Shown here: in pieces, positions 1 to 63,995 of the stretch
How positions within the stretch are numbered: position 1 is the stretch's first letter
Layout: each line of letters begins with the position of its first letter
Assembly (NCBI RefSeq): GCF_028464065.1
Contig: NZ_CP116808.1
Location: 1,327,886 to 1,391,885, forward strand
Direction of reading: 5' to 3'
DNA from: Saprospira sp. CCB-QB6
GTDB taxonomy: Bacteria; Bacteroidota; Bacteroidia; Chitinophagales; Saprospiraceae
DNA: 64,000 nt
Position numbers and translations under genes: made by a program
The notes under the pieces: model-generated
Database searches by the model: none
What the model saw: the letters and a program-made list of their open reading frames with translations, nothing else
Told to the model about the DNA's origin: nothing

Positions 1-213
1 ATTGAATCGGTGGCAGTGGTCTTGCAGCTGGTCCATGGCTTTTTGCACCCCAGCAAAAATGCGGAGGATCTTCATCCCGAAATTGCGGCCCAGATTGCGG
101 CCAGTTGTATTCCCCTGCAAACAGAGGCCGCCAATTTGCGCTATATGGCCAAGGCGAGTTTTGGCTTTGGCGATGTGAATAGTTGTTTGCTTTTTGCCCG
201 CTGGGAGGACTAG
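1..213 (+). CDS. 3' end of a beta-ketoacyl-ACP synthase (partial; start lies upstream of the window)
   Basis: C-terminal ...AKASFGFGDVNSCLLFARW matches the conserved KAS C-terminus (SFGFGG-N-S/A-LVF); the ORF is open to the window edge. Confidence 0.5.
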   Translation: MESVAVVLQLVHGFLHPSKNAEDLHPEIAAQIAASCIPLQTEAANLRYMAKASFGFGDVNSCLLFARWED

Positions 214-217
214 TATT

Positions 218-400
218 TTCTTTTGGGGCTGCCCCTCCGGCCCTTTGGGCCTTCGGGTCGGGCCATTGCGCAGCTCGCTGATCGCTCGGCCCTTCGGCGC
301 AAAGCGCCTCGGTCTGCCGCCTACGGCGGCCCTGCTACAGCCCCTCAGCCTGCGGCGGCTTTGCCGCCTGCTATCTGTGCTTGTAGGTTAAAACCTACAG
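218..400 (+). repeat. REP/MITE-like GC-rich intergenic element, copy 1 (long form with 3' hairpin tail)
   Basis: TTTTGGGGCTGCCCC...GGGTCGGGC...GCAGCTCGCT...GCTCGGCCC...GGTCTG...CCTCAGCC blocks shared with about 21 other copies in the window. Confidence 0.7.
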
Positions 401-5511: not shown

Positions 5512-5642
5512 TGGCTTAGGGATGGAAAGCAGTGGCCCGCAGGGCCAGACCAAGGCGCTGCAAGCGCCGAAGGGCCGAGCGAACAGCGAGCTGCGACACA
5601 GCCCGACCCGACCGCAGGGAGGGGAAGCCCCAAAAAAACAGC
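5512..5642 (-). repeat. REP/MITE-like element copy (reverse), second of an inverted pair
   Basis: GGGATGGAAAGCAGTGGCCCGCAGGGCCAGACC...GAGCTGCGACACAGCCCGACCCG...CCCCAAAAAAA. Confidence 0.65.
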
Positions 5643-5730
5643 TCCCCTACCCTAGCTAAATTACACAAATTGCTGGGCTCCGCCTTAGCCCCTCTACAAT
5701 CTTTACCCTTTTTTAATTTGCGCCGCAAAA

Positions 5731-7425
5731 ATGAAAGCTTGGAAACTTCGCTCTTTTAATACCACTACCGCTCAGCAGCTGCAAGAGGCGCTGAAGGTGC
5801 ATCCTGTTTTTTGCCAGTTGTTGGTCCAAAGAGGGGTGCATGATTTTGAGCAGGCCAAACAATTTTTTCGGCCCAATTTGGCCAATTTGCATGCGCCTAA
5901 TTTGTTGGCGGGTATGCCTGCTGCTTTGGCGCGTTTGGGGCAGGCCTTGGCGCAGGGCGAAAAAACCCTACTTTTTGCCGATTATGATGTCGATGGCCTT
6001 TCCGCTTTGCTCATTTTACATCGCATATTGGACCAAAAGCTGCCTTTAGATTATCTTTTGCCCGATCGTTTTGAGCAGGGTTATGGTCTTTCGGTTTATG
6101 CGGTAGAGTTTGCGCAGGCGGTAAATTGTTCGCTCATTATTGCTTTAGATTGTGGTAGTCGGGACCATAAAGCGTTGGCATTGGCCCAAAAGCTGGGCAT
6201 TGATGTGATTATTGTGGATCATCATGAATTGCTACGTAAGCAGCAGCCCAAAGCAGCGGCTTTAATCAACCCCAAACAAGCCCAATGCGGCTATCCCAAT
6301 TCGGAAATTACGGCGGCGGGCTTGGCCTTTAAGTTAGCCCAAGCCTTGGTGGAGCAAGAAAATTGGCCAGAGGCGCCACTTTGGCCGCTTTTGCAGTGGG
6401 TAGCGCTCAGTTTGGCGGCAGACCAAGCCCCATTGACTGGCGAAAATCGAATTTTGGCCCATCATGGTTTGCGTTTTTTAGAAGAGGAGGGAGAAGAAAT
6501 TTTGCAGCAGATTCAGGAGCGTTTGGAGCGGCCAAGGCCTTATAATATGCAGGCGCTTTATTTTGGTTTGGTGCCCTTGCTCAATGCGCCGGGGCGGATG
6601 GGGCATGCTCAAACGGCTGCTGATTGCTTATTGGCCAAGGGAGAAAAGGAGCAAAAGAAGAAATTGGAGCTTTTGTTTTTGCAAAATCAGGCGAGAAAAA
6701 GGGCTCAGGAAGAGGTTTATCAGGAAATCCAACGAATATTACAAGAGCAGGGGCAATGGTTAGAGCGTTCGCTTTTGTTGTTGGCCCAGCCGCATTGGCC
6801 GCTTGGTGTTTTGGGCATTTTGGCCAGTCGATTGAGTAAAGAATGGGGGCGGCCCTGTCTTCTTTTTGGGCAAAATAAAGCGGGTAACTGGCAGGGATCG
6901 GGTCGTTCTCCTGAAGGGCAAGAATTATTGCCTGCGGTAGAGGCTTGTTCTGCGCAGTTATTACAATATGGTGGGCATAGTCGGGCCTTGGGTTTACAGC
7001 TCAAAAAAGAAGAATTGGCTGCTTTTGAGGCGGCCTTAGAGGCCCAGCTTTATCAGCAGTTGAGTCGGGGGCCAGAGCCAGAAGCCATAGCAATAGATGC
7101 TCAGTTAGATTTTTCTTTAATTGGGCCAAAGTTTTGGAAATTGCTCAAGCAATTTGCGCCCTTTGGGCCGGGCAATCCCAATCCTTGTTTTATGAGTAAA
7201 AACCTTTGTGATAGTGGCTATTCCAAGGCGATCAATCAGAAGCATTTGCGTTTATTTTTGCGGCAGGGGCAAGGGAGTCCGCAAGAGGGAATAGCGTATA
7301 ATTTTATGGAACATTTTGAGCAGATCAAGAGTCGCAAGCCCTTTCATTTATGTTATCAATTGGAAGAGCATTTTTATCGGGGGCGGCGGAAATTGCAATT
7401 TGTGGCTAGAGACATCAAGTTTTAG
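5731..7425 (+). CDS. recJ: single-stranded-DNA-specific exonuclease RecJ
   Basis: DHH-family motifs DYDVDGLSAL and VIIVDHHE; about 560 aa with DHHA1-like C-terminal region. Confidence 0.75.
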   Translation: MKAWKLRSFNTTTAQQLQEALKVHPVFCQLLVQRGVHDFEQAKQFFRPNLANLHAPNLLAGMPAALARLGQALAQGEKTLLFADYDVDGLSALLILHRILDQKLPLDYLLPDRFEQGYGLSVYAVEFAQAVNCSLIIALDCGSRDHKALALAQKLGIDVIIVDHHELLRKQQPKAAALINPKQAQCGYPNSEITAAGLAFKLAQALVEQENWPEAPLWPLLQWVALSLAADQAPLTGENRILAHHGLRFLEEEGEEILQQIQERLERPRPYNMQALYFGLVPLLNAPGRMGHAQTAADCLLAKGEKEQKKKLELLFLQNQARKRAQEEVYQEIQRILQEQGQWLERSLLLLAQPHWPLGVLGILASRLSKEWGRPCLLFGQNKAGNWQGSGRSPEGQELLPAVEACSAQLLQYGGHSRALGLQLKKEELAAFEAALEAQLYQQLSRGPEPEAIAIDAQLDFSLIGPKFWKLLKQFAPFGPGNPNPCFMSKNLCDSGYSKAINQKHLRLFLRQGQGSPQEGIAYNFMEHFEQIKSRKPFHLCYQLEEHFYRGRRKLQFVARDIKF

Positions 7426-27498: not shown

Positions 27499-27640
27499 TT
27501 GGGGCTGCCCCTCGCTCTGCTCGGGTCGGGCTGTCTCACAGCTCGCTGTTCGCTCGGCCCTGCGGCGCCAAAGGCGCCTTGGTCTGGCCCTTCGGCCACC
27601 CTTTTCCATCCCTCAGCCTGCGGGCGCTGCGGCCAGTGGG
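27499..27640 (+). repeat. REP/MITE-like element copy
   Basis: TTTTGGGGCTGCCCCTCGCTCTGCTCGGGTCGGGCTGTCTCACAGCTCGCTGTTCGCTCGGCCCTGCGG...CATCCCTCAGCC. Confidence 0.75.
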
Positions 27641-27842
27641 GCCTTGGCCCGCCCAGCTTGGCATTTTCCTCTTTTCATCGCTTCGGCAGTGGGCCAAGCC
27701 CCCAAAAGAACCCTCTTCCTCTATTATTTTTCCAGCTAATGCTCCAAAAGGACTGCATGGTCTATATTCTTTTTCAGCGAATAGTCGAAAAGAGTTGTCA
27801 TGGACCATTATTTTTCCAGCAATTGCTCCATGACAACTCTTT

Positions 27843-28236
27843 CAGACCATTATTTTTCTAGCCAATGGGCTGGGAAGTTCTACCAGACCATTATTTTTCC
27901 AGCCAATGAGCTGGGAAGTTCTATCAGACCATTATTTTTCCAGCCAACGAGCTGGGAAGTTCTACCAGACCATTATTTTTCCAGCCAACGAGCTGGGAAG
28001 TTCTATCAGACCATTATTTTTCCAGCCAACGAGCTGGGAAGTTCTATCAGACCATTATTTTTTCAGCCAATGAGCTGGGAAGTTCTACCAGACCATTTCT
28101 TTTCCAGCGAACGAGCTGGGAAGTTCTATCAGACCATTATTTTTCCAGCCAACGAGCTGGGAAGTTCTATCAGACCATTATTTTTTCAGCCAATGAGCTG
28201 GGAAGTTCTACCAGACCATTTCTTTTCCAGCGAACC
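27843..28236 (+). repeat. tandem array of about 9.6 x 41-bp direct repeats (CAGACCATTATTTTTCCAGCCAAYGAGCTGGGAAGTTCTAY) with a 123-bp higher-order repeat; degenerate copies extend upstream to about 27700
   Basis: Units start at 27843, 27884, 27925, 27966, 28007, 28048, 28089, 28130, 28171 and 28212. The triplet at units 5-7 is repeated exactly as units 8-10. No unique spacers. Confidence 0.9.
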
Positions 28237-34859: not shown

Positions 34860-34998
34860 CAACCCACAATATTGGCTGAGGGATGGATAGCAGTGGCCGC
34901 AGGCCAGACCCAGGGCTTTTGAAGCAAAGCGAAAAAGCCCGCAGGGCCGAGCAGACCTGCGAGCTGCGGCACAGCCCGACCCAGCCGCAGGCTGGGGC
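34860..34998 (-). repeat. REP/MITE-like element copy (reverse)
   Basis: GGCTGAGGGATGGATAGCAGTGGCCGCAGGCCAGACC...GCAGGGCCGAGCAGACCTGCGAGCTGCGGCACAGCCCGACCC...GGGGCAGCCCCAAAAAAA. Confidence 0.7.
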
Positions 34999-35012
34999 AG
35001 CCCCAAAAAAAG

Positions 35013-35861
35013 CTACTTCTTCTTGGTCTGTTCCACTAACGTTTCTATAGTATTATATAGATTTTGGATAATCGTTGATTGATTTTGGACCATTTTGCGG
35101 AGCTCGTCCATTTCGGAGCGGAGCATATTTTTAATATTGGAAGGAGAGGGCAAAAAGGGAGAAATTTTGGCGCGGACATACCAAATCTCTTGAATATCCT
35201 TCACGCTCATTTCAAAGGGTTCATAGTAAGTATTGTCGGACAGGAGCAGCAGTTTTTGGTCGGCTTTGATGTGGTTGTGTATGCGTTTGATGAGGACATC
35301 GCCTTTAGTGACCACCACATAGACATAATTATCTTTGAGGGAAGAGGCCCAGAGGCTGGGTTCTAGGTAGCTACAAACCACCTTATCGCCTTCAAAGAGG
35401 GTGGGTTCCATACTATCGCCAGAGAGGTCAAATGAGCGGTGGGTACCCACCTTATACTTATAGTCGGGCAAGGTATAGCTGGGTAATTCTTGGATAAAAG
35501 TGGGGTCTTTAGACTCGGAGGCATAGCCTGCTTGAGCGGGCACGGGCACATGCACAATGCGTTCATCATTGTGGGAGTCAGTGACTACGGTAAGGACTTT
35601 CAAGTTAGGTTGAGCCTCTTCTGTCATAAAAAGGGGCCCTTCGCCAGAGAAGAGATAGACGGGATTCATCTTATAGACCTCTATGGCTTTTCGGAGCAGC
35701 TCAATAGTCACATCTCGGCGTTGTTTGAGGATTTCGCTCAGGCTTTGGGGCAAATAATCGAGGGAAAGGGCAAATTGTCGGCTAGAGCGGATGCGTTGTT
35801 CCTTCTTGAGTTGGTCGTGGCAATGGATAAAACGTTCGGTTACTATAGAATTCATAAGCAA
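35013..35861 (-). CDS. LexA-like repressor: N-terminal HTH plus C-terminal S24 peptidase domain
   Basis: LSGDSMEPTLFEGDKVV (Ser nucleophile) and downstream VLIKRI (Lys) S24 motifs; N-terminal HTH-like region. Confidence 0.6.
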   Translation of the reverse strand: MLMNSIVTERFIHCHDQLKKEQRIRSSRQFALSLDYLPQSLSEILKQRRDVTIELLRKAIEVYKMNPVYLFSGEGPLFMTEEAQPNLKVLTVVTDSHNDERIVHVPVPAQAGYASESKDPTFIQELPSYTLPDYKYKVGTHRSFDLSGDSMEPTLFEGDKVVCSYLEPSLWASSLKDNYVYVVVTKGDVLIKRIHNHIKADQKLLLLSDNTYYEPFEMSVKDIQEIWYVRAKISPFLPSPSNIKNMLRSEMDELRKMVQNQSTIIQNLYNTIETLVEQTKKK

Positions 35862-48718: not shown

Positions 48719-49747
48719 TTACAAATTATCATAATATTTTCGCTTGAGGTAGAAAGCCAAGCGGACCAATAAAATAAGGGCGGGGACCTCAATCAATGGG
48801 CCCACTACAGCCACAAAGGCCGCAATAGAATCTAGACCAAAAAGGGCAATCGCCACCACAATAGCCAGCTCAAAGTTGTTGCCTGCTGCCGTGAACGAAA
48901 TGGCTACATTCTGATCATAAGGGACCTTTTGCCAGCGGCTAATAAAAAAGCCCAATAAAAACATCAAGACAAAATAAAGACTAAGCGGAAGGGCCAAATG
49001 CAAGACCTGCAAGGGCAGCTCAAAGATGATATCTGCCTTGAGCGAAAACATCAACACAATAGTAAAGAGTAGGAAAAGCAGGGTCAGCGGACCTATTTTG
49101 GGCAGAAACTTTTGTTCATAGTTGGCTTTGCCCCAATATTTCTGTCCTAAAAAGCGGCTCAAGCCACCTAGCGCAAGGGGAATTCCTAAATAAATCCCCA
49201 CCGTCTTAAGCAAGTAGTGAAATGGAATTTCTGGAATCGCATCTAGTTCAATCCCTAGCCAAGCTGGCAGATAGTTAATAAAAAATAAAGCATAAGCCCC
49301 ATAGCCAAAAAGTTGAAACAGGCTATTGAGCGCAACCAAAGCCGCTGCATATTCTTTATTTCCCTTGGCCAAATCGTTCCAAACCAAAACCATAGCAATA
49401 CAGCGGGCCAAGCCAATGAGAATAAGGCCCGTCATATACATAGGTTGATTGGCAAAGAACAAAACCGCAAGGCCAAACATCAAAAAGGGGCCAATAATCC
49501 AGTTGAGGACCAAAGAAAGCCCCAAAACCTTGAGGTTTTTCATTAGGCTTGGCAATAGCCGATAATCTACCTTAGCTAAGGGAGGATACATCATTAAGAT
49601 CAATCCAATAGCTAAAGGGATATTCACTTCTTGATACTCCCAACTAGCCAGAATTTCTCCCCAATTGGGAATGAATTTCCCAAACACTAAGCCTAATAGC
49701 ATAGCGATAAAAATCCATACGGTCAGGTATTTATCTAAGTATTTCAT
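48719..49747 (-). CDS. acr3: ACR3-family arsenite efflux permease
   Basis: N-terminal MKYLDKYLTVWIFIAML matches the ACR3 signature (LSFLDRYLTLWIF); 10 TMs; 342 aa. Confidence 0.7.
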   Translation of the reverse strand: MKYLDKYLTVWIFIAMLLGLVFGKFIPNWGEILASWEYQEVNIPLAIGLILMMYPPLAKVDYRLLPSLMKNLKVLGLSLVLNWIIGPFLMFGLAVLFFANQPMYMTGLILIGLARCIAMVLVWNDLAKGNKEYAAALVALNSLFQLFGYGAYALFFINYLPAWLGIELDAIPEIPFHYLLKTVGIYLGIPLALGGLSRFLGQKYWGKANYEQKFLPKIGPLTLLFLLFTIVLMFSLKADIIFELPLQVLHLALPLSLYFVLMFLLGFFISRWQKVPYDQNVAISFTAAGNNFELAIVVAIALFGLDSIAAFVAVVGPLIEVPALILLVRLAFYLKRKYYDNL

Positions 49748-50321
49748 TTTGGCTGCATTTGCTGAAAATATAAAAGAGGTCTCGCCCTATTTCTTGTGCT
49801 CGCTGACGATATACAAAAGCAGCCTGAGCACGACCATCCATTTTCGAGGGATCTTCATAAGGCAATGAAAAGCGCTGATAAGCCTCGGGCAAATAAGGAC
49901 AGTCGGCCTCCACTTCACTACAAAGCATAAAGGCATAAATAGGCTGTTCACTTTGCCCCTCTATAGCCCAAAGCTTGGTCTTCAATTGGCTTCCTTGATT
50001 CTCGGCCCAATATAAATACCCTCCAACTAACGAAAAGCCCAGCTGTTGAAGGCAGGCTGTAGTTTGAGGCGCTAGAGGACCTGCTACAGTTCCCGCAGAA
50101 TAAATCTGAAAATTCAATCCAAAATAATGATTGAATAAATGCGCCCAAAATTCAGCAAATTGACTTCTTCGGCTATTGTGTCGACACACAAAATAAAGCT
50201 GACTGTTTTTGGGCGCAGCCCTTAAAGCAGCTATGATTGAAGCAAAACGATCAACAGGATAATCCGCAACCTCTTTCTCCAATTGCTCAATTTGCTTGAG
50301 GAGTTTTGGATAAATAGACAT
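49731..50321 (-). CDS. arsC: LMW-PTP-family arsenate reductase (ArsC-like) with N-terminal ~35-aa extension (the ORF is open to 50363)
   Basis: P-loop LYFVCRHNSRRSQFAEFWA (CX5R), YSAGT, LCSEVEADCPYLP and YEDP align with B. subtilis ArsC, retaining the Cys10/Cys82/Cys89 equivalents. Confidence 0.6.
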   Translation of the reverse strand: MSIYPKLLKQIEQLEKEVADYPVDRFASIIAALRAAPKNSQLYFVCRHNSRRSQFAEFWAHLFNHYFGLNFQIYSAGTVAGPLAPQTTACLQQLGFSLVGGYLYWAENQGSQLKTKLWAIEGQSEQPIYAFMLCSEVEADCPYLPEAYQRFSLPYEDPSKMDGRAQAAFVYRQRAQEIGRDLFYIFSKCSQNEILR

Positions 50322-50332
50322 GGATTTAAGAT

Positions 50333-50785
50333 TTAACAACAACCAGAATTTGGTCCACAACAAGAAGATTTTTTCTCCTCCTCAAAGGGAATTCCACAAG
50401 CCTCCTTAGCCAAACAATCCGTTTGCTTAGCTTGCAAGACCAACTGCCCCAAGTTATTCAATCCCAACCAATAATACTCCAAACTATTAGGCCCCTGATA
50501 CTCCACAGCCAATTCTAAATCAGCTAATTGCAGCTTTTCTTCTGCCAACTCAATAATCTTGAGCATCTTGCTGGGCGCCAAACGATGCTCCACATCATCA
50601 GCTACCCAAAACTGCAGGACCAACTCCTTTTGCTCCCGGAGCTGCCCCCCACAATCCATAAACCTTTTCTGAACCTCCCCCAATTCTGTCAAATGAAAAT
50701 GCGCAGGAATCAACTGCCCATCTTGCTGAAAAATACTAAGTGCTTCGGCCTGGGCCAAATGAGCTTTCAATGCAGATAGTTTCAT
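50333..50785 (-). CDS. hypothetical protein with vicinal-cysteine C-terminal tail SSCCGPNSGCC (ArsD-tail-like), in an ars operon
   Basis: The tail resembles the ArsD C-terminus (...CCGGNTSCC); the rest is not ArsD-like (no N-terminal CC-x4-C). Confidence 0.45.
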   Translation of the reverse strand: MKLSALKAHLAQAEALSIFQQDGQLIPAHFHLTELGEVQKRFMDCGGQLREQKELVLQFWVADDVEHRLAPSKMLKIIELAEEKLQLADLELAVEYQGPNSLEYYWLGLNNLGQLVLQAKQTDCLAKEACGIPFEEEKKSSCCGPNSGCC

Positions 50786-50877
50786 AAGATCGTATTTTTG
50801 CGATAGATTAGATAAAAAGAAAAGGCCATTTCGGCCTAGTAATCGTAAAAGTACGATAAGTAATTTAACTGACTAAA

Positions 50878-51216
50878 TTAGCAGCATTTTTTATCAGAAT
50901 TTAACAATTCTGTTCCATTGATGAGTGGACCTAAAGTCTTTTGCAAATGTTGCCAGCCCGCAGAATCAATACAATAATTTCGGCGAACGCCCTCTATATT
51001 TCCCTGAATAAGCCCAGCTTCTTTCAGGGCTTTTAAGTGCTGACTAACAGTAGCCTGAGCCAAGCCAAGCTCCTCCACCAAATCACTCGTAATACAGGCC
51101 TCCGCAGCAATGAGGCGCTCCAGAATAGCAATTCTAGCGGGATGCGCCAAAGCTTTAGCCAATTTGGCCATCTCATTTTGTGCCGTAGTAAAGAGTTCCG
51201 TTTTGCTGCTCGCCAT
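50878..51216 (-). CDS. arsR: ArsR/SmtB-family metalloid-responsive repressor
   Basis: [48 protein letters not shown]; has the Cys in helix alpha-3 (EAC). Confidence 0.7.
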
Positions 51217-51218
51217 AT

Positions 51219-51767
51219 TTACTTTTTAGATTTTTTCTCTTCTTCCTCCAAAAGTTCTTCCTGCTCTCGAATATAAGCTTCAATCAATTTGTCCAAAATT
51301 TGTCGCATCGGTTTATTCTCCTGTCGGGCAATGGTTTTAAACTGATCAATTTTCTTGCTATTGAGCACCACGGTCAATCGACGAGTCTTTTGCTTAGACT
51401 TTCGGCTGCCGTTCGTTTCTTGTTCTTCTGGACTTTCGGGCACGGTACGCTTGAGCAAAAGCTCGATACCCACGGCCTTTTCGCCATCTTTATTTTGCAC
51501 AACGCCTCTTTTCACCTCAGCTACAGAGGTCCCATCCTTACCAAAAGAGCTCTCGATACTTTCCTTAAAGAAGCTTTCGAGATTATCGGCAAAAGACTTT
51601 CGGCTACTTTTGCGTTTTTTGCTGCTTTTCTGCTTGCTTTTTTTGCTGCTTTCCTCCTCTTCCACAGTCAATACAGAAGGGTTATCTTGGGCATTATCTT
51701 CATAGAGCGTATGCTCAAACAAAGATTCTAAGTCGGTTGAAAAGGATTTTTTATTACGCTTGGCCAT
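51219..51767 (-). CDS. Lys/Ser-rich hypothetical protein with internal duplication ([13 protein letters not shown] / [13 protein letters not shown]) and a C-terminal ribbon-helix-helix-like segment; the longer track ORF reads through a REP copy and is trimmed here
   Basis: Met at 51767; [36 protein letters not shown] is beta-strand then helix-helix like; directly upstream of arsR on the same strand. Confidence 0.4.
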
Positions 51768-51821
51768 GATGCGGATACGATTGGAGAAAGCAGTTAAAAT
51801 AGTGGTTAGGGGAAGTATTTG

Positions 51822-51966
51822 GGGCTTCCCCTTCGGCCCTTTGGGCCTGCGGGTCGGGCTGTGTCGGGGCTCGCTATTCGCTCGGCCCTGCGCGGGCTTT
51901 GCCCGCTGGGTCTGCGGCTTTGCCGCCCCCCTATCCATCCCTAAGCCGGCGGCTGCGCCGCCTCTA
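51822..51966 (+). repeat. REP/MITE-like element copy (forward)
   Basis: TTTGGGGCTTCCCCTTCGGCCCTTTGGGCCTGCGGGTCGGGCTGTGTCGGGGCTCGCTATTCGCTCGGCCCTGCGCGGG...CATCCCTAAGCC. Confidence 0.7.
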
Positions 51967-52087
51967 GGTCCAAGAAGCTCTTGAACGCATAGCAATATAA
52001 CAAAAAAAATCTTTTCTTCTTTGCTCTTGCCTTGGCTAGTCCCTGCATAAGAGCAAAAGCGGCCAATTTGTTCCTTTTGGTCCTGCT

Positions 52088-52258
52088 TTTTGAGGCGGCG
52101 CAGCCGCCTGCGAGCGCAGCGAGCCATGGCCCAGCGCTGCGGAGGGGTGGCCGAAGGCCAGACCGAGCCAGCTTGCTGGCGAAGGGCCGAGCGAATAGCG
52201 AGCCCCGCAGCATAGCGGCGGCCGCCCCGCTATAAAGGGCGGCCGCGGGCCCCAAAAT
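52088..52258 (-). repeat. REP/MITE-like element copy (reverse)
   Basis: GCGGAGGGGTGGCCGAAGGCCAGACCGAGCC...GAAGGGCCGAGCGAATAGCGAGCCCCGCAGC...GGGCCCCAAAA. Confidence 0.7.
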
Positions 52259-54579: not shown

Positions 54580-56241
54580 TTATTTATTAGTTTTCATGTT
54601 GCGAATAAATTCGTCCAGTCGAGCTTGAGCAGTTTGAAGCTCCTCCTCATAAGAAGGGACCACAGAACCCTGCCCAGGCATAGTTTCCACATAAACAGAG
54701 GTAGAAGGGAAGGCAATCTGCACCCCAAGGGCCTCTGCAAGTCGCAAGATAGCAAAAATAAGCTCTTCTTTCCAAGCTAATTCCTGCCCCCAATCATTCG
54801 TCTTGAAGTAGACCATAAAGAGGACATCTAAGGAGGAGGCCCCCATATTATTCAAATGAATATAGTAGGTTTCCTTATCCGTATGCGGATGCGCTTCATT
54901 CAGTTTTCTCAAGCCCTGAATAAAGGTCTCAATTAAGGCTGGAGGCGTATGATAAGCTACCCCAATTGTCGTATTAAAACGGCGCAATTCCCGCTCCCCC
55001 AAGTTATTGATGGTCTCATTCATGAGGTTACCATTGGGCACAGAAATCACAGAGGTGTCCATGGTTTTAATTCGCGTAGAACGAAAACCAATATCGGTCA
55101 CGGTCCCCGTTACGGTCCCCACAGTCACAAAATCCCCAATCTGAAAGGGCCGATCCGCATAAATCATCATAGAGCCCAAGAGGTTGCGCAAGGCTTCTTG
55201 GGCCGCTAGGGCCACCGCCAAACCACCCAAAGAAAGCCCCGCCAATAGGGCCGTTACATTGACCCCACAAACGCTTAAAGCATGTATAAAGGCCGAAGCA
55301 ATGATTAGGGCATTGACAATGCGTATGAAAATAGGCAATAGATACTCATCTGTTGTGGTCTTGGTCCTACTGGTCAACCACTCCAAATAAGAACGGAAAA
55401 AGGCCAGGGTCCGCATGGCCAAAACCGCAAACAAGACCGTATTGGTCAACTTGAGCATCAACAGCAGATAAAAACTCAAGCCAATAGGCAACTGCAATAC
55501 AGGCACAAAGGTATAGACAATATAAAGAACCAAAAGATAGCTCAAGACCTTGGCCATTCGAATGACTTGCTTCTCATCAAAATGCCCCTTGCCCAAACGG
55601 CTATTCGCAAAAAAGTGAATGGTCCACCTAAACAAACGCGAGATAAAGGCATGCAATATAAAACTCAAGGCAATCAAAATCAACATCCCCAAATACTGCC
55701 AACTCGCCAAGCCCAAAAAACGCTGCTGCCCCAACTGTGGCAAAACACTGAGCAAAATATCACTCCCAAAGGGATAAACCTGCTTGTGCAGTTGCGGAAT
55801 CGCCCGCTCCGTCTCCCTCGAATAATGCCATTTGCCCGATATTTTATTCCGCTCCAAATAGACCTCCGGCAATTCTTGCGGATAGGGAATATAGACATTT
55901 TTCTGCCCCACAGAATCCCTATACATGGGGTCCTCTGGTATCCGACTCAAAGACACCCGCAAGCCTTTTCCATCCCAAATCTGCTTGAGCTTTAAAGCCA
56001 AATCCTGGCCCGCCTCGCCCCGCTTATAAAAAGCCCTAGCCGCCATGCTCGCATCATAATGATCCGCCTGCAAATAGTACAAATGCGTATAAATCGCATC
56101 ATAGGGCGTCAGCAAATTGGCCTCGGGCTTTTCTGAAGGATCTGCAGTTTGCCCCCAAGCCAAAAAGGGTAAAAGAAGTAGTAGTAATAATGATAATCGC
56201 TTGTTTGTAAAGCGCATAAATGCTCTTGTTTTTATGTACAA
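54580..56241 (-). CDS. MscS-family mechanosensitive channel with periplasmic N-terminal domain
   Basis: IYADRPFQIGDFVTVGTVTGTVTDIGFRSTRIKT...VISVPNGNL (MscS TM3/beta-domain signature); signal peptide. Confidence 0.7.
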   Translation of the reverse strand: MYIKTRAFMRFTNKRLSLLLLLLLPFLAWGQTADPSEKPEANLLTPYDAIYTHLYYLQADHYDASMAARAFYKRGEAGQDLALKLKQIWDGKGLRVSLSRIPEDPMYRDSVGQKNVYIPYPQELPEVYLERNKISGKWHYSRETERAIPQLHKQVYPFGSDILLSVLPQLGQQRFLGLASWQYLGMLILIALSFILHAFISRLFRWTIHFFANSRLGKGHFDEKQVIRMAKVLSYLLVLYIVYTFVPVLQLPIGLSFYLLLMLKLTNTVLFAVLAMRTLAFFRSYLEWLTSRTKTTTDEYLLPIFIRIVNALIIASAFIHALSVCGVNVTALLAGLSLGGLAVALAAQEALRNLLGSMMIYADRPFQIGDFVTVGTVTGTVTDIGFRSTRIKTMDTSVISVPNGNLMNETINNLGERELRRFNTTIGVAYHTPPALIETFIQGLRKLNEAHPHTDKETYYIHLNNMGASSLDVLFMVYFKTNDWGQELAWKEELIFAILRLAEALGVQIAFPSTSVYVETMPGQGSVVPSYEEELQTAQARLDEFIRNMKTNK

Positions 56242-56315
56242 AGGTTTTCCAAGCCCAAAGTTAAGCTTTCTCTAGCGCTTTAAAGAGGTTCTGTTCTTAA
56301 GGTTATGTTTATCTT

Positions 56316-56452
56316 TTTTGGGGCCTGCCGCCTTCGGCGGCCGGGCTGTGCACTGGCTCGCAGGTCTGCTCGGCCCTGCGGGGCTTCCGCTGCGCTTCAG
56401 CCCCTGGGTCTGCGGCTGCGCCGCCCCAGTTACCATCCCTAGGCCGCTCATC
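56316..56452 (+). repeat. REP/MITE-like element copy
   Basis: TTTTTTGGGGCCTGCCGCCTTCGGCGGCCGGGCTGTGCACTGGCTCGCAGGTCTGCTCGGCCCTGCGGGG...CATCCCTAGGCC. Confidence 0.65.
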
Positions 56453-56469
56453 CTTGAGTTTTCAGGCTA

Positions 56470-57130
56470 GCCATTTTGCTTCGGCCCAATATCCGCTAGA
56501 GGGCTTCCCTTAACCATTGAGAGGGGTACACCTACCCCTCTGGAGGATTTCCCATACCCGTCAGAAGGAGTTACATACTCATCGGGAGGGGTCACTTAGG
56601 CATCGGAATGGGGTCCGCTAGCTATCAAGAGGGTTTTACCTACCCATCGGGAGGGGTACAGTTACCCCTCTGGAGGATTTCACTTAGCCATCCGAAGGGG
56701 TACAATAGCCCTCTCTAGGGCTAGACGTAGTCCTCTACAGGGCTACTCCTAATCATCAAGAGCATTCCCTAACCTCCGAGCGAGGGTCTCTTCTAATCCT
56801 CGATAGGGGCTGGGCAAATCCTCTTAAGAGCTGGCTCTAATCCTCCAGATTAGGCCCCTAGTCATCAAGACCATTATTCTACCTAGAAGCGAGGACTTAG
56901 GCTAGTCATTAGTAGGACTTGAACTACCCCAAAGCATGACCTATAGAGATCCTCCAGGGCAACTAGGCCTATAGTATAAAGGACTTGAATAGGCCCAAAA
57001 GAGGACCTACACTAGCCCTATCAAGAACCTCCCCTAGCCCAAGCGAGGACTTGCCAAAGTCCTCTTGAGGACCTAGGCAAATCCAAGAGAGGAGCTAACT
57101 AAATCCTGCTGAAGGGGTTTACTACTCCTC
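56470..57130. repeat. about 650-bp non-coding array of ~30 degenerate ~22-bp repeats (approximate consensus cTAnnCaTCnaGAGGGgtnac), CTAG-rich, with adjacent units forming imperfect palindromes (e.g. GAGGGGTACACCTACCCCTC)
   Basis: Period of about 21-23 bp visible by eye over 30 units. At least 12 CTAG tetramers against about 2.5 expected. No ORF of 60 aa or more on any frame between 56242 and 57320. Confidence 0.7.
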
Positions 57131-57283
57131 CCCCTTATTTTAGGTGCTCTTGGGGGTGGACTAGGCACAAAAAAGAGCCAAGGCCACAAGATCTCGGCTC
57201 CTTTTGAGGAAAGAACTGAATTAAAATTCTAACAAAAAAGTCAATTCTTCTATTTCAATCTATAGTTTTAAATTATCTATTTT

Positions 57284-57291
57284 TATATTTG
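57284..57291 (+). promoter_or_regulatory. -7 promoter element TATATTTG 30 nt upstream of the ATG at 57321
   Basis: TAnnTTTG consensus. Confidence 0.4.
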
Positions 57292-57320
57292 GTTATTATT
57301 TAAATAATAATTTAACCTGC

Positions 57321-58523
57321 ATGCACGAGCACAGACAGACAGACAGACAGACAGACAGCCCTAACCAGCATAATATATTAGGCGCAACTATTTCTGAAAG
57401 TGACTTAATACTTGATGAAGAAGAACAACTATGCAACAGCTATGAATTTAAGCCACAACTTGATGGGCTCTCTTTTGACAAAGCATTCTTAGATGAATTA
57501 GAGATTGGAAGCAATGGTCCTGTACATATACTTGCTTCTGCACGTAATGCACTTTTTGGCATCCCCGGCTTGGATTATTTCCCACTTATAACGCTTAGTA
57601 GTCAAGGAAATGGAATTTGGGAATTTTATAGTGCTGGAGTTCATAATACCTCTTTGGGATTAAGTAATGCACCTATTTCTTTTTCATGGAAAGAAGATGA
57701 GCCTTTAGAAGGCTCATTGAAACAATATCTAGATAAAAACAGTACTGCTAAAAATGAAAAAGGTCGAATTCGGTACGTCCAGTTAATCAAGAAAACAATA
57801 GTAGCTAATGGTCAAACAATTGAATATCTTTATCCAGAAGCTGATGCAGATCTAGAAAACCCTAAGTATAAAGACCTCATATCCAATATCGAAAAAATAC
57901 GATTAGGTTCTGCTAGCTTCAGAGCCCTTAATGAGCTTATCGAGGAATCAGGAGAAGAAGTTTGTATTGGTTTACTCCCTAGTGACGATCCGTTTTGGGA
58001 GAATTACGGAGCTTCTGCTGTTGCACAGCAACCGATGGGAGTATATCAAGATTTACCTGGTGTAATTGCATATAAAACTCCAGCATCACCTTTAATGTTC
58101 AATGCTGAAGAGATTTCTACGATTACAGAAGAGTTATTTCATCAGTATCAGAATATTCTTTATGAAAGATTATTTGAGTTTGGAATCCACAACATCAATC
58201 CTGTATTAACTGTCAATATGGAGGCTGAGGCAAAAGTATTCAACAAGCTTGTTATTGATGAATTAGGGTTAGAATTTTCCCCTTATCTTCCAGATTACCT
58301 ACTAACTATCTACACAAACAATAGTTACACTCATGGATTGGAAGGCTTTCCACAACATCTGTATAAAATAAGTCAAGAAAACAATCAACTTATTGAAGGC
58401 CATTTGTTAGAGGACTACTTTACTTACTTAAAGGTGTTTGAAGCTAACCAGTACAGAAATAAAAACTATGAAGAAATTCCTCCCGATGCTTTTAACAATG
58501 TTATACGGCAAAAAAATAAATAG
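57321..58523 (+). CDS. hypothetical protein (400 aa) in an AT-rich islet; carries an (ACAG)7 repeat at codons 4-13
   Basis: The ORF is open with the repeat in its present length; no domain recognised. Confidence 0.45.
   Translation: MHEHRQTDRQTDSPNQHNILGATISESDLILDEEEQLCNSYEFKPQLDGLSFDKAFLDELEIGSNGPVHILASARNALFGIPGLDYFPLITLSSQGNGIWEFYSAGVHNTSLGLSNAPISFSWKEDEPLEGSLKQYLDKNSTAKNEKGRIRYVQLIKKTIVANGQTIEYLYPEADADLENPKYKDLISNIEKIRLGSASFRALNELIEESGEEVCIGLLPSDDPFWENYGASAVAQQPMGVYQDLPGVIAYKTPASPLMFNAEEISTITEELFHQYQNILYERLFEFGIHNINPVLTVNMEAEAKVFNKLVIDELGLEFSPYLPDYLLTIYTNNSYTHGLEGFPQHLYKISQENNQLIEGHLLEDYFTYLKVFEANQYRNKNYEEIPPDAFNNVIRQKNK
57331..57358 (+). repeat. (ACAG)7 tetranucleotide microsatellite inside the 5' end of a CDS
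   Basis: ACAGACAGACAGACAGACAGACAGACAG translated as TDRQTDRQTD. Confidence 0.95.
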
Positions 58524-62957: not shown

Positions 62958-63995
62958 ATGTTTAGATTTACGGAACTACAGGCGGCAGAACCGCCGCAGG
63001 CTGAGGGATGGGCAGCAGTGGCCGCAGGCCAGACCGAGCCGCCTTTGGCGGCGAAGGGCCGAGCGAATAGCGAGCTGCGAGACAGCCCGACCCGCAGGCC
63101 CAAAGGGCCGAAGGGGCAGCCCCAAAAAAATGGTTTCTACCTTTTCGCACTACTTATTTTCGGTTTATTTTTAACTGCTTGTCGGTCGGTGCCCAAGGGT
63201 TGGAGCAGTTATAATCGGGGGCAATTTTGGTATAAGAGCATGAGGGAAAGGGAGGCCGACTCGCTGTTTTTGCCTCAAGAGGGGGATCAATTAGAGATCA
63301 ATTATAGTATTTGGAAGGGAGATAGTTTGCTTTTGAGTTCTGCCCAGCAAATGCAGCCTGTTTTGGTAGAAATGCCCTCGGCCAAGGCACATAATTTATT
63401 TACGGAGGCTTTGAGTTTAATGGCTGAAGGGGATAGTTTAGAGGTTTTGGTTTTGGCGGAAGAGGCAGCGGATATTTTGGGCCCTTATGCGGCTGAATTT
63501 GGGGCGAAAGAGCGGGTGCGATTTGGGTATCGGCTCAAAACGCTAAAAAGCAAGGCACAATTGGAGGCAGAGATTCAAGCGGAGCGGGCAAGGGTAGCAG
63601 AGCGGCGAGCTTGGATTTTGGCAGAATTGGAAATAGATAGCAGTCTGAATCAGTTAGCGGGAAAAGGGAGAGAAGGACTTCGGTTTAAGAAGCTAAAGTC
63701 TAGTAAAGGTCCAAAACTTCAGCTTGGGCAGCTGGCTCAAATCCAATATATTTGTCTCCTACCTAATGGAGAAATCATAGATGATAGTTTTTTGAGTATG
63801 CGTCCAATTTGGGTAGAATTAGGTGATCTCAAGATGATTCGGGGTTGGTCCTTGGCCCTACAAGAATTTGCAGAGGGGGAACAAGGGCTAATTTATTTGC
63901 CAGCAGCTTTAGCTTATGGGCAATTGGGGAATCCGCCTTTTGTGCCGCCTAATAGTCCACTCATATTTTATATAGAAGTACTGACCACTAAATAA
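62958..63995 (+). CDS. FKBP-type peptidyl-prolyl cis-trans isomerase lipoprotein (start uncertain because a REP copy occupies codons 8-57)
   Basis: C-terminal FKBP domain GQLAQIQYICLLPNGEIIDDSF...PIWVELGDLKMIRGWSLALQEFAEGEQGLIYLPAALAYGQLGNPPFVPPNSPLIFYIEVL; lipoprotein signal FYLFALLIFGLFLTAC after the repeat. Confidence 0.6.
   Translation: MFRFTELQAAEPPQAEGWAAVAAGQTEPPLAAKGRANSELRDSPTRRPKGPKGQPQKNGFYLFALLIFGLFLTACRSVPKGWSSYNRGQFWYKSMREREADSLFLPQEGDQLEINYSIWKGDSLLLSSAQQMQPVLVEMPSAKAHNLFTEALSLMAEGDSLEVLVLAEEAADILGPYAAEFGAKERVRFGYRLKTLKSKAQLEAEIQAERARVAERRAWILAELEIDSSLNQLAGKGREGLRFKKLKSSKGPKLQLGQLAQIQYICLLPNGEIIDDSFLSMRPIWVELGDLKMIRGWSLALQEFAEGEQGLIYLPAALAYGQLGNPPFVPPNSPLIFYIEVLTTK
62988..63130 (-). 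repeat. REP/MITE-like element copy lying inside the 5' end of the FKBP lipoprotein ORF
   Basis: GGCTGAGGGATGGGCAGCAGTGGCCGCAGGCCAGACCGAGCCGCCTTTGGCGGCGAAGGGCCGAGCGAATAGCGAGCTGCGAGACAGCCCGACCCG...GGGGCAGCCCCAAAAAAA. Confidence 0.7.

Follow-up and report, generated by a model that had tools for sequence, protein, structure and literature searches.

The chromosome of Saprospira sp. CCB-QB6 (hereafter QB6), a gliding bacterium of marine origin in the family Saprospiraceae (Bacteroidota), carries a row of short tandem repeats within a 64,000-nucleotide stretch of DNA that we refer to as the window. The row, at 56487..57142, consists of 30 head-to-tail units of 22 bp and is housed in a gene-free gap of 1.1 kb between the gene of an MscS-family mechanosensitive channel (minus strand) and an orphan open reading frame (ORF; plus strand). 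It is a genuine, conserved and phase-locked chromosomal minisatellite that is specific to the lineage of Saprospira grandis and QB6. As to its role, sequence comparison leads us to favour, tentatively, the reading that the array may be a phased row of sites for a dimeric DNA-binding protein, with a geometry like that of iteron and centromere arrays and with a function that would probably be accessory. A first-pass annotation of the window had drawn attention to the array and had proposed that it represents degenerate protein-binding sites, the decayed remnant of a tandem array, or a structured non-coding RNA.

Periodicity and symmetry of the array

The autocorrelation of positions 56440-57140 was highest at a lag of 22, where it reached 0.46 while the background stayed near 0.25, and harmonics followed at 44, 66, 88 and 110. 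For the stretch 56487-57143, the self-match at lag 22 amounted to 0.468. A set of 500 shuffles, scored at all lags between 5 and 60, never exceeded 0.322, and no other segment of this length in the window went beyond 0.335 at lag 22. Tandem Repeats Finder (TRF) reported the best-preserved segments only, with periods of 22 and 44 at 56521-56704 and a period of 22 at 56993-57050, and a chain of position weight matrix matches placed 29-30 units between 56487 and 57142 at a spacing of 22 bp, with four spacings of 21. These analyses bear out the first-pass description of about 30 quasi-periodic units of some 22 bp. All units share one orientation, and their consensus reads CCTAGTCCTCTAGAGGACTTCC. 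Two parts can be distinguished by unit type, the first of which lies next to a copy of REP, a GC-rich dispersed repeat family. This REP-proximal part (56487..56703) comprises 10 units of the CCCATC..GAGGGGT type and partly follows a 44-bp super-period, and the distal part (56704..57142) comprises 20 units of the TCCTC..GAGGAC type. As the annotation had also stated, the array is devoid of coding potential, with no ORF longer than 42 aa in any frame. Outside the array, no unit scoring at least 17 bits was found, either in the remainder of the 64-kb window or across some 60 kb of S. grandis loci.

The annotation had further pointed to an abundance of the tetramer CTAG, giving at least 12 occurrences against about 2.5 expected. 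The excess itself was upheld, with a true count of 11 where the remainder of the window predicts 2.8 (Poisson P=1.6e-4), and CTAG reaches 10 occurrences in another 661-bp stretch of the window. The accompanying notion that the tetramer is rare did not apply to QB6, where CTAG is not depleted (279 observed vs 247 expected from a mononucleotide model or 294 from a Markov model). The surplus of CTAG follows from the unit consensus and constitutes no separate signal.

Each unit is symmetric about its centre, in line with the hairpin-forming potential noted at first pass. Mirrored positions were complementary at a frequency of 0.50, as compared to 0.21-0.35 in other registers, and the position-frequency matrix of the unit correlated with its own reverse complement at r=0.78, with shifted registers reaching at most 0.23. 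Per-position coefficients ranged from 0.82 to 1.00 when positions 4-10 were set against positions 19-13. The symmetry extends to degenerate positions, in that Y at position 6 mirrors R at position 17 and the A/C/G mixture at position 5 mirrors T/G/C at position 18. Information is concentrated at positions 3, 4, 6-10, 14-17 and 19, and is virtually nil at the two central positions and at the six linker bases between dyads. The unit can thus be written as a 16-bp dyad motif, ANYCMTC-NN-GAKGRNT, completed to 22 bp by a variable linker of about 6 bp. When the arms were compared individually, the right arm of a unit was as complementary to the left arm of the next unit (0.57-0.65) as to its own (0.56-0.63), and nearly as complementary to those of non-adjacent units (0.53-0.58). 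Because the arms pair no better within a unit than across units, the palindrome belongs to the consensus rather than to single units. A homodimeric binder of double-stranded DNA would be expected to produce such a pair of half-sites, equally conserved, mirror images of each other and lacking unit-specific pairing; selection on RNA stems would not.

In the model that we favour, one dimer would occupy each unit, giving about 30 predicted sites, and the array would act at the DNA level. Given the 22-bp step (~2.1 helical turns), successive dimers would line up along almost one face of the helix, twisting slowly from unit to unit. Such a geometry, as in iteron arrays and plasmid centromeres, would allow for a cooperative nucleoprotein filament or for the titration of a protein. 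We infer the binding of a protein, its dimeric nature and the action of the resulting complex, which may lie in the regulation of flanking genes, in titration or in chromosome organisation. Among the first-pass proposals, that of degenerate binding sites would agree best with the dyad profile of the unit and with the slow core and kept register described below; its specification as a nucleoid or silencing type of array found nothing in its favour.

Turnover and constraint in relatives

Relatives were identified by a protein-guided scan, using one genome per species, and by look-ups of the members of the MscS 90% cluster. This provided the orthologous locus from S. grandis DSM 2844 (L003), S. 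grandis str. Lewin (L010), S. grandis CP110854 (L012), an ENA metagenome contig (L014) and several shorter contigs. Comparing the same locus across relatives, as the annotation had suggested, revealed the array at the same place, in the same orientation and beside the same REP copy in all four long S. grandis sequences, with 29-39 units per array. Locus and unit order are kept in the five genomes or contigs (QB6 and four S. grandis), and the S. grandis arrays maintain a spacing of exactly 22 bp, except for a single 21 in Lewin.

The two parts of the array behave differently. In the REP-proximal part, the number of units varies between strains, identity to DSM 2844 drops to 0.71 and the alignment contains 35 gap positions. 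Runs of identical or near-identical units occur here (five in DSM 2844, about ten in ENA contig_37517), and Lewin carries a duplicated multi-unit block. The strain-variable number and the identical runs show that amplification and homogenisation continue at the REP-proximal end. The 20 distal units, in contrast, are one-to-one orthologous in all five sequences, with an identity to DSM 2844 of 0.82 and one gap. We picture slippage or unequal exchange as lengthening and shortening the array next to REP, while older units would persist distally. The first-pass view of a decayed remnant therefore captures one half of the picture, the distal units being old and degenerate; it does not hold for the REP-proximal end, which is still amplifying, nor for the old units as such, which are constrained. 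No 22-bp periodicity was detected upstream of MscS in more distant Saprospiraceae (MscS 57-69% identical) where upstream sequence was present, and in two relatives at 66-68% MscS identity the upstream intergenic region spans just ~250 bp. The array is accordingly confined to the S. grandis/CCB-QB6 clade.

The orthologous distal units allowed us to compare rates of change at single positions. Between QB6 and S. grandis, the 20 units diverged by 0.19 overall, with 0.10 at nine core positions and 0.25 elsewhere; for 4-fold degenerate sites in the neighbouring genes MscS and TerC, the figure was 0.36-0.46. Core positions thus evolve 2.5x slower than linkers and ~4x slower than 4-fold sites. Moreover, the information content of a position, as derived from the QB6 paralogues, was inversely related to its orthologous divergence (Spearman -0.84, P=8e-7). 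The register is equally well kept, with one gap in the 440 bp of the distal part vs 13 gap positions in a ~100-bp intergenic stretch 5' of MscS. We read these rates as pointing to moderate purifying selection on motif and register.

One sequence of the same species as the window lacks the array. In the ENA metagenome contig L200, MscS and TerC are 98.5% identical to those of the window, and the divergence at 4-fold sites is 0.05, which places the contig in the same species. Its left flank, identical to that of the window (...GCTTCGGCCCAATAT), runs directly into a hairpin-bearing sequence, with zero 22-bp units. The latter sequence is found left of the array in the contig L013 and right of the array in CP110854. 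Either L200 represents a real deletion or the assembler skipped from one copy of the flanking element to another; a genuine loss could arise by recombination between two such copies. In L013, the hairpin-bearing element is about 290 bp long (GCCTAGGGACAAGCCCCTAGGC ... ACACAAA..TGAACAGTC; ~50-330, minus strand) and is flanked by a duplicated CCCAATAT; related sequence lies on the opposite side of the array in CP110854 and stands alone in the array-less L200. The element is possibly a small mobile element and a substrate for array loss.

A pseudo-translation of the homogeneous units, run against 5.8 billion proteins so as to catch spurious ORFs in other arrays, gave no match, nor did a class-A two-unit pattern in viral contigs. 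A loose five-unit C-N6-AGG pattern yielded 67 matches in viral contigs, all of which were unrelated tandem repeats, and a metagenome scan with the class-A two-unit pattern returned 117 stretches, none of the Saprospira type and most being unrelated 22-bp palindromic arrays of 3-9 units. In an intergenic region of two IMG/VR contigs (L068, 2290-2700; L019, ~5700-5815), 11-bp repeats (TATAAGGGGCT/TGTAGGGGC) precede five palindromic units of 22 bp (CCTAGACCCCTGAAGGGGTACC), and the ORFs beside them had no PHROG match. These viral units may be called analogous in form to those of Saprospira; a relatedness is not demonstrable. A recurrent family of 4-7 tandem 22-bp units (G.TTACCCTCACGAGGGGTTTG) occurs in the metagenome contigs L179 (4480-4589), L161, L148, L126, L097, L108, L141 and L088. 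In L179, the units are located directly upstream of a gene starting with a signal-peptide-like sequence, as a further short phased palindromic array before a gene.

A proposed protein-binding scaffold and its alternatives

The strongest alternative to a row of protein-binding sites is that the array is a functionless minisatellite, a slippage-born or mobile-element-associated repeat subject to neutral turnover and conversion, with at most incidental effects on its neighbours. We consider this possible, if rather doubtful. It would account for the strain-variable copy number and unit composition at one end and for the conspecific contig without an array, and it suits a locus that is a hot spot for REP, for the ~290-bp element with its duplicated flanks and for strain-specific genes. 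An unrelated 41-bp minisatellite lies beside another REP copy in the window, and minisatellites of 22, 23 and 41 nt have been documented in Bacteroidetes (PMC4596501). Neutral decay, however, predicts an equal loss of information across positions along with indels, whereas the distal units display a slow core and a kept register. For a mobile-element origin, one would look for terminal inverted repeats (TIRs) or target-site duplications (TSDs) at the borders, which in the five sequences did not rise above shuffles, and for further copies of the unit, which are missing from the loci scanned above.

Several observations weigh against the protein-binding array and partly favour a neutral one. Within S. 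grandis, the array diverges by 0.03-0.12, nearly matching the 0.10-0.18 of 4-fold sites, so that overall constraint is only moderate, though core divergence once more comes to roughly half of that at the other positions. Gene conversion within the array could raise the divergence of linkers relative to the core. Among the old units, only ~59% of mirrored positions pair, and many units are poor dyads. Elsewhere in the window, the dyad motif occurs at chance level (2 matches vs 0.9 expected). The neighbouring genes (MscS, TerC, rhodaneses, an ars cluster, a glycosyltransferase and orphan ORFs) include no candidate for the binding protein. Finally, the array is probably dispensable, so that its function would be accessory; if the deletion in L200 is real, the array is not essential.

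The nearest published analogue that we found is the BrickBuilt element of Porphyromonas gingivalis (PMC4596501). BrickBuilt is a minisatellite-type miniature inverted-repeat transposable element, composed of spacer-less 23-nt tandem direct repeats in up to ~23 copies and always intergenic (Klein et al. 2015, PMC4596501). Its units combine conserved and non-conserved positions, show dyad symmetry and are predicted to form stem-loops; its copy number is strain-variable at a conserved locus, it is limited to one or two species and it has no Rfam match (PMC4596501). P. gingivalis also possesses 22-nt and 41-nt tandem repeats (PMC4596501). The Saprospira array resembles BrickBuilt in its occurrence in Bacteroidota, its intergenic position, its spacer-less units (22 bp vs ~23 nt), the dyad symmetry and the mixture of conserved and non-conserved positions within these units, its restriction to few species, its strain-variable number at a conserved locus and its lack of an Rfam match. 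However, BrickBuilt is present in 19 dispersed copies per genome and possesses leader and tail segments as well as IS5-like terminal inverted repeats (PMC4596501), whereas the Saprospira array has no second copy in ~120 kb (window and S. grandis loci) and no TIR or TSD at its borders, the 60-nt border alignments, inverted and direct, falling within the shuffle range in 5/5 sequences. The two elements share no sequence similarity, and the old Saprospira units differ from BrickBuilt by their position-specific constraint and strict register.

An RNA transcribed from one strand and made up of many short hairpins, for example a protein sponge like CsrB or RsmZ, we regard as unlikely. Both strands of the array fold better than dinucleotide shuffles (z=-4.6 for plus, -4.8 for minus), yet such a folding excess is expected of any palindrome array. 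Mismatches of the A-C kind outnumber G-T mismatches on the plus strand (104 vs 49), meaning that a minus-strand transcript would gain G-U pairs, a weak lean toward that strand. Under either hairpin model, however, just 58-59% of cells pair, and several of the 'helices' stay below 35%. Covariation did not exceed that of shuffles, neither within units (0.035 vs 0.037) nor between units (0.036 vs 0.039), although five sequences limit the power of this test. Substitutions between orthologues were mostly single events that break or make a pair, with 0-1 compensatory doubles per comparison, and the arm complementarity belongs, as described, to the consensus. Turning to possible transcript borders, a weak hairpin followed by the T-rich CCCTTATTTT closes the conserved region on the plus strand at the right border in all strains, and S. 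grandis carries a strong hairpin with T- and A-tracts between REP and array; the latter is missing from QB6. The Bacteroidetes -7 promoter box, TAnnTTTG, is absent from either array border in every strain, whereas the flanking genes have perfect ones. A sigma-70 promoter scan yielded nothing notable, its model not being applicable to Bacteroidota. Scanning positions 55500-58000 against Rfam at a permissive E-value returned chance matches only (E >=0.5) and no family. CsrB-type RNAs present GGA in hairpin loops on stems that covary. The array shares with CsrB and RsmZ a length of several hundred non-coding nucleotides, hairpin potential and roughly 20-30 GGA-containing motifs (~29 A/GAGGA/G motifs), but its AGG(A/G) resides in the sequence-conserved arm and variation falls on its loops and linkers, opposite to the pattern of CsrB-type sites. 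Taken together, these data do not support the structured RNA proposed at first pass.

A relic origin or partition site, in which the iterons or centromere of a plasmid or phage-like element, once integrated, would have outlived genes since lost or replaced, appears very improbable, despite the resemblance in geometry. In iteron origins such as those of R6K and pPS10, 22-bp iterons are direct repeats placed at two helical turns and bound by a sequence-specific initiator, and in the lambda origin each iteron is itself an inverted repeat. Next to their 4-9 units, these origins possess a rep gene and a conserved AT-rich element for unwinding, often together with DnaA boxes. Partition centromeres are built similarly: sopC of the F plasmid contains a 16-bp inverted repeat in each of its twelve 43-bp repeats, and like parC of R1 or pSK41 it adjoins, on a plasmid, an operon of the parA/parB or parM/parR type. 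Dimers bind the palindromes of such arrays and assemble into a higher-order nucleoprotein complex. The period of 22 bp and the dyad units of the Saprospira array are typical of both classes; the array is long and phased, with a short palindrome per unit, an AT-rich stretch lies nearby in QB6, the right flank is variable and island-like with orphan genes, and short arrays of 22-bp palindromic units do occur in viral contigs. Yet with 29-39 units the array is far above usual origins, and the AT-rich stretch exists in QB6 only. Pfam and PHROGs revealed no rep, par or phage gene adjoining the array in any strain, and no partition operon (ParA/ParB, ParM/ParR or TubZ/TubR) appeared in the Pfam gene lists, covering ~4-10 kb in each of five strains. 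No DnaA-box cluster is present, the window containing 17 one-mismatch matches over 64 kb vs 12.4 expected. In blastn searches with the array at word size 11, neither a set of 72,556 plasmids nor one of 50,697 phages gave a match. Moreover, in contrast to plasmid-borne sopC and parC, the array is chromosomal and probably dispensable, and it is fixed beside housekeeping genes across the clade and under ongoing constraint.

Remaining candidates could be set aside. The chromosomal origin oriC was rejected for want of a DnaA-box cluster, GC skew being uninformative at the 64-kb scale. A CRISPR array, already dismissed at first pass together with a coding repeat and REP, is ruled out, as the units abut with only ~6 variable bases between dyads and no spacers, and as neither cas genes nor a leader are found nearby, the neighbours being MscS, TerC, a PMT_2 glycosyltransferase and orphan ORFs. 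With REP elements and BIMEs the array has in common short, imperfect, intergenic palindromes, and a genuine REP copy abuts it; REPs, however, are dispersed and alternate in orientation, whereas the 22-bp unit occurs in one array and one orientation at the scanned loci. The idea that the units stem from the 3' end of REP was rejected, since the resemblance is limited to the 5-nt CCATC.

Returning to the protein-binding array, a bolder version of it would be a selectively maintained 'satellite' of ~30 operator-like palindromes that nucleate a large cooperative complex with a putative dimeric protein; this we hold to be speculative. Equally conjectural is the thought that such a satellite complex would mark a position or boundary on the chromosome or titrate a protein, in functional kinship with plasmid centromeres and iteron arrays but without replication or partition genes. 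Minisatellites of bacteria are usually seen as typing markers or junk. The two-helical-turn register, the self-reverse-complementary profile and the slow motif positions make the Saprospira array a candidate, amenable to testing, for a natural chromosomal scaffold of protein and DNA with many binding sites, for which the naturally array-less relative may serve as a ready comparison. Should no binder exist, the locus would be a clean example of a tandem array that keeps its motif without a function at the level of the organism.

Neighbouring features of the locus

The MscS gene (54580..56217, minus strand; 545 aa form) is the conserved left anchor of the locus. Its promoter carries a perfect Bacteroidetes -7 box, TAACTTTG (56256..56263, minus strand), located between the gene and the REP copy, which places the array upstream of the MscS promoter. 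The REP copy (56316..56452) forms the MscS-side flank of the array in every strain and is a neighbour, not a member, of the array. The REP family is a different element of ~130 nt, GC-rich and ending in a conserved TCCATCCCTAAGCC-like motif, with 13 further copies in the window (for example at 34879-35015, 51852-51948 and 5513-5637). Long spurious ORFs read through several of these copies (e.g. 51219-52127 and the start of 62958-63995), and short-read assemblies break at REP, ~120 bp upstream of MscS.

A second, unrelated minisatellite was observed at 27838-28235, between another REP copy (~27500-27640) and the ATG of the next gene (28255). It consists of 9.7 copies of a 41-bp unit with 92% matches and a CCAGC..GCTGG hairpin per unit, and older degenerate units extend from ~27700, on the REP side. 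Given this second array beside a REP copy, likewise with degenerate units at one end, minisatellites next to REP seem to be a habit of the QB6 genome.

To the right of the array, different small ORFs and hairpin elements are found in each strain, marking a variable hot spot. In QB6, this side is taken up by a strain-specific insertion (57144..~58505, plus strand) containing weak hairpins, an AT-rich islet, a promoter box and a 400-aa orphan ORF; its right limit is approximate and was set where similarity to DSM 2844 resumes. The AT-rich islet that the annotation had placed next to the array does exist (57200-57320), and encloses a perfect -7 box, TATATTTG (57284-57291), just upstream of the ORF (57321-58523, plus strand). 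Islet and ORF, ~1.4 kb in all, are missing from the locus in 4/4 S. grandis sequences. The islet therefore belongs to the strain-specific insertion, as the promoter region of the inserted gene, and its association with the array is coincidental.

The 400-aa protein is 100% identical to the hypothetical protein PPO43_05340 and has no Pfam or PHROG match; an exact-sequence look-up of this protein and of the TerC protein of the window returned no record. DSM 2844 encodes a homologue at a different locus with array-free surroundings, and the ORF was rejected as a partner of the array because its homologues reside at other loci without one. Members of the family have ~130 N-terminal residues in common and differ in their C-termini, and the DSM 2844 homologue P0002 contains a HESGH metalloprotease-like motif. 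A perfect (ACAG)7 tract at 57331-57358 lies within codons 4-12 of the 400-aa ORF (peptide RQTDRQTD), and P0002 opens with the identical MQDHRQTDRQTD. The tract is a candidate slipped-strand phase-variation switch. Further to the left of MscS, an arsenic-resistance-like cluster (48719-51200, minus strand) encodes an ACR3-type permease of 342 aa, a phosphatase-like ORF of 210 aa and a 150-aa ORF with a Cys-rich tail, and in the gene lists of its S. grandis counterpart we found DUF6428 and an ArsR-type regulator of 112 aa.

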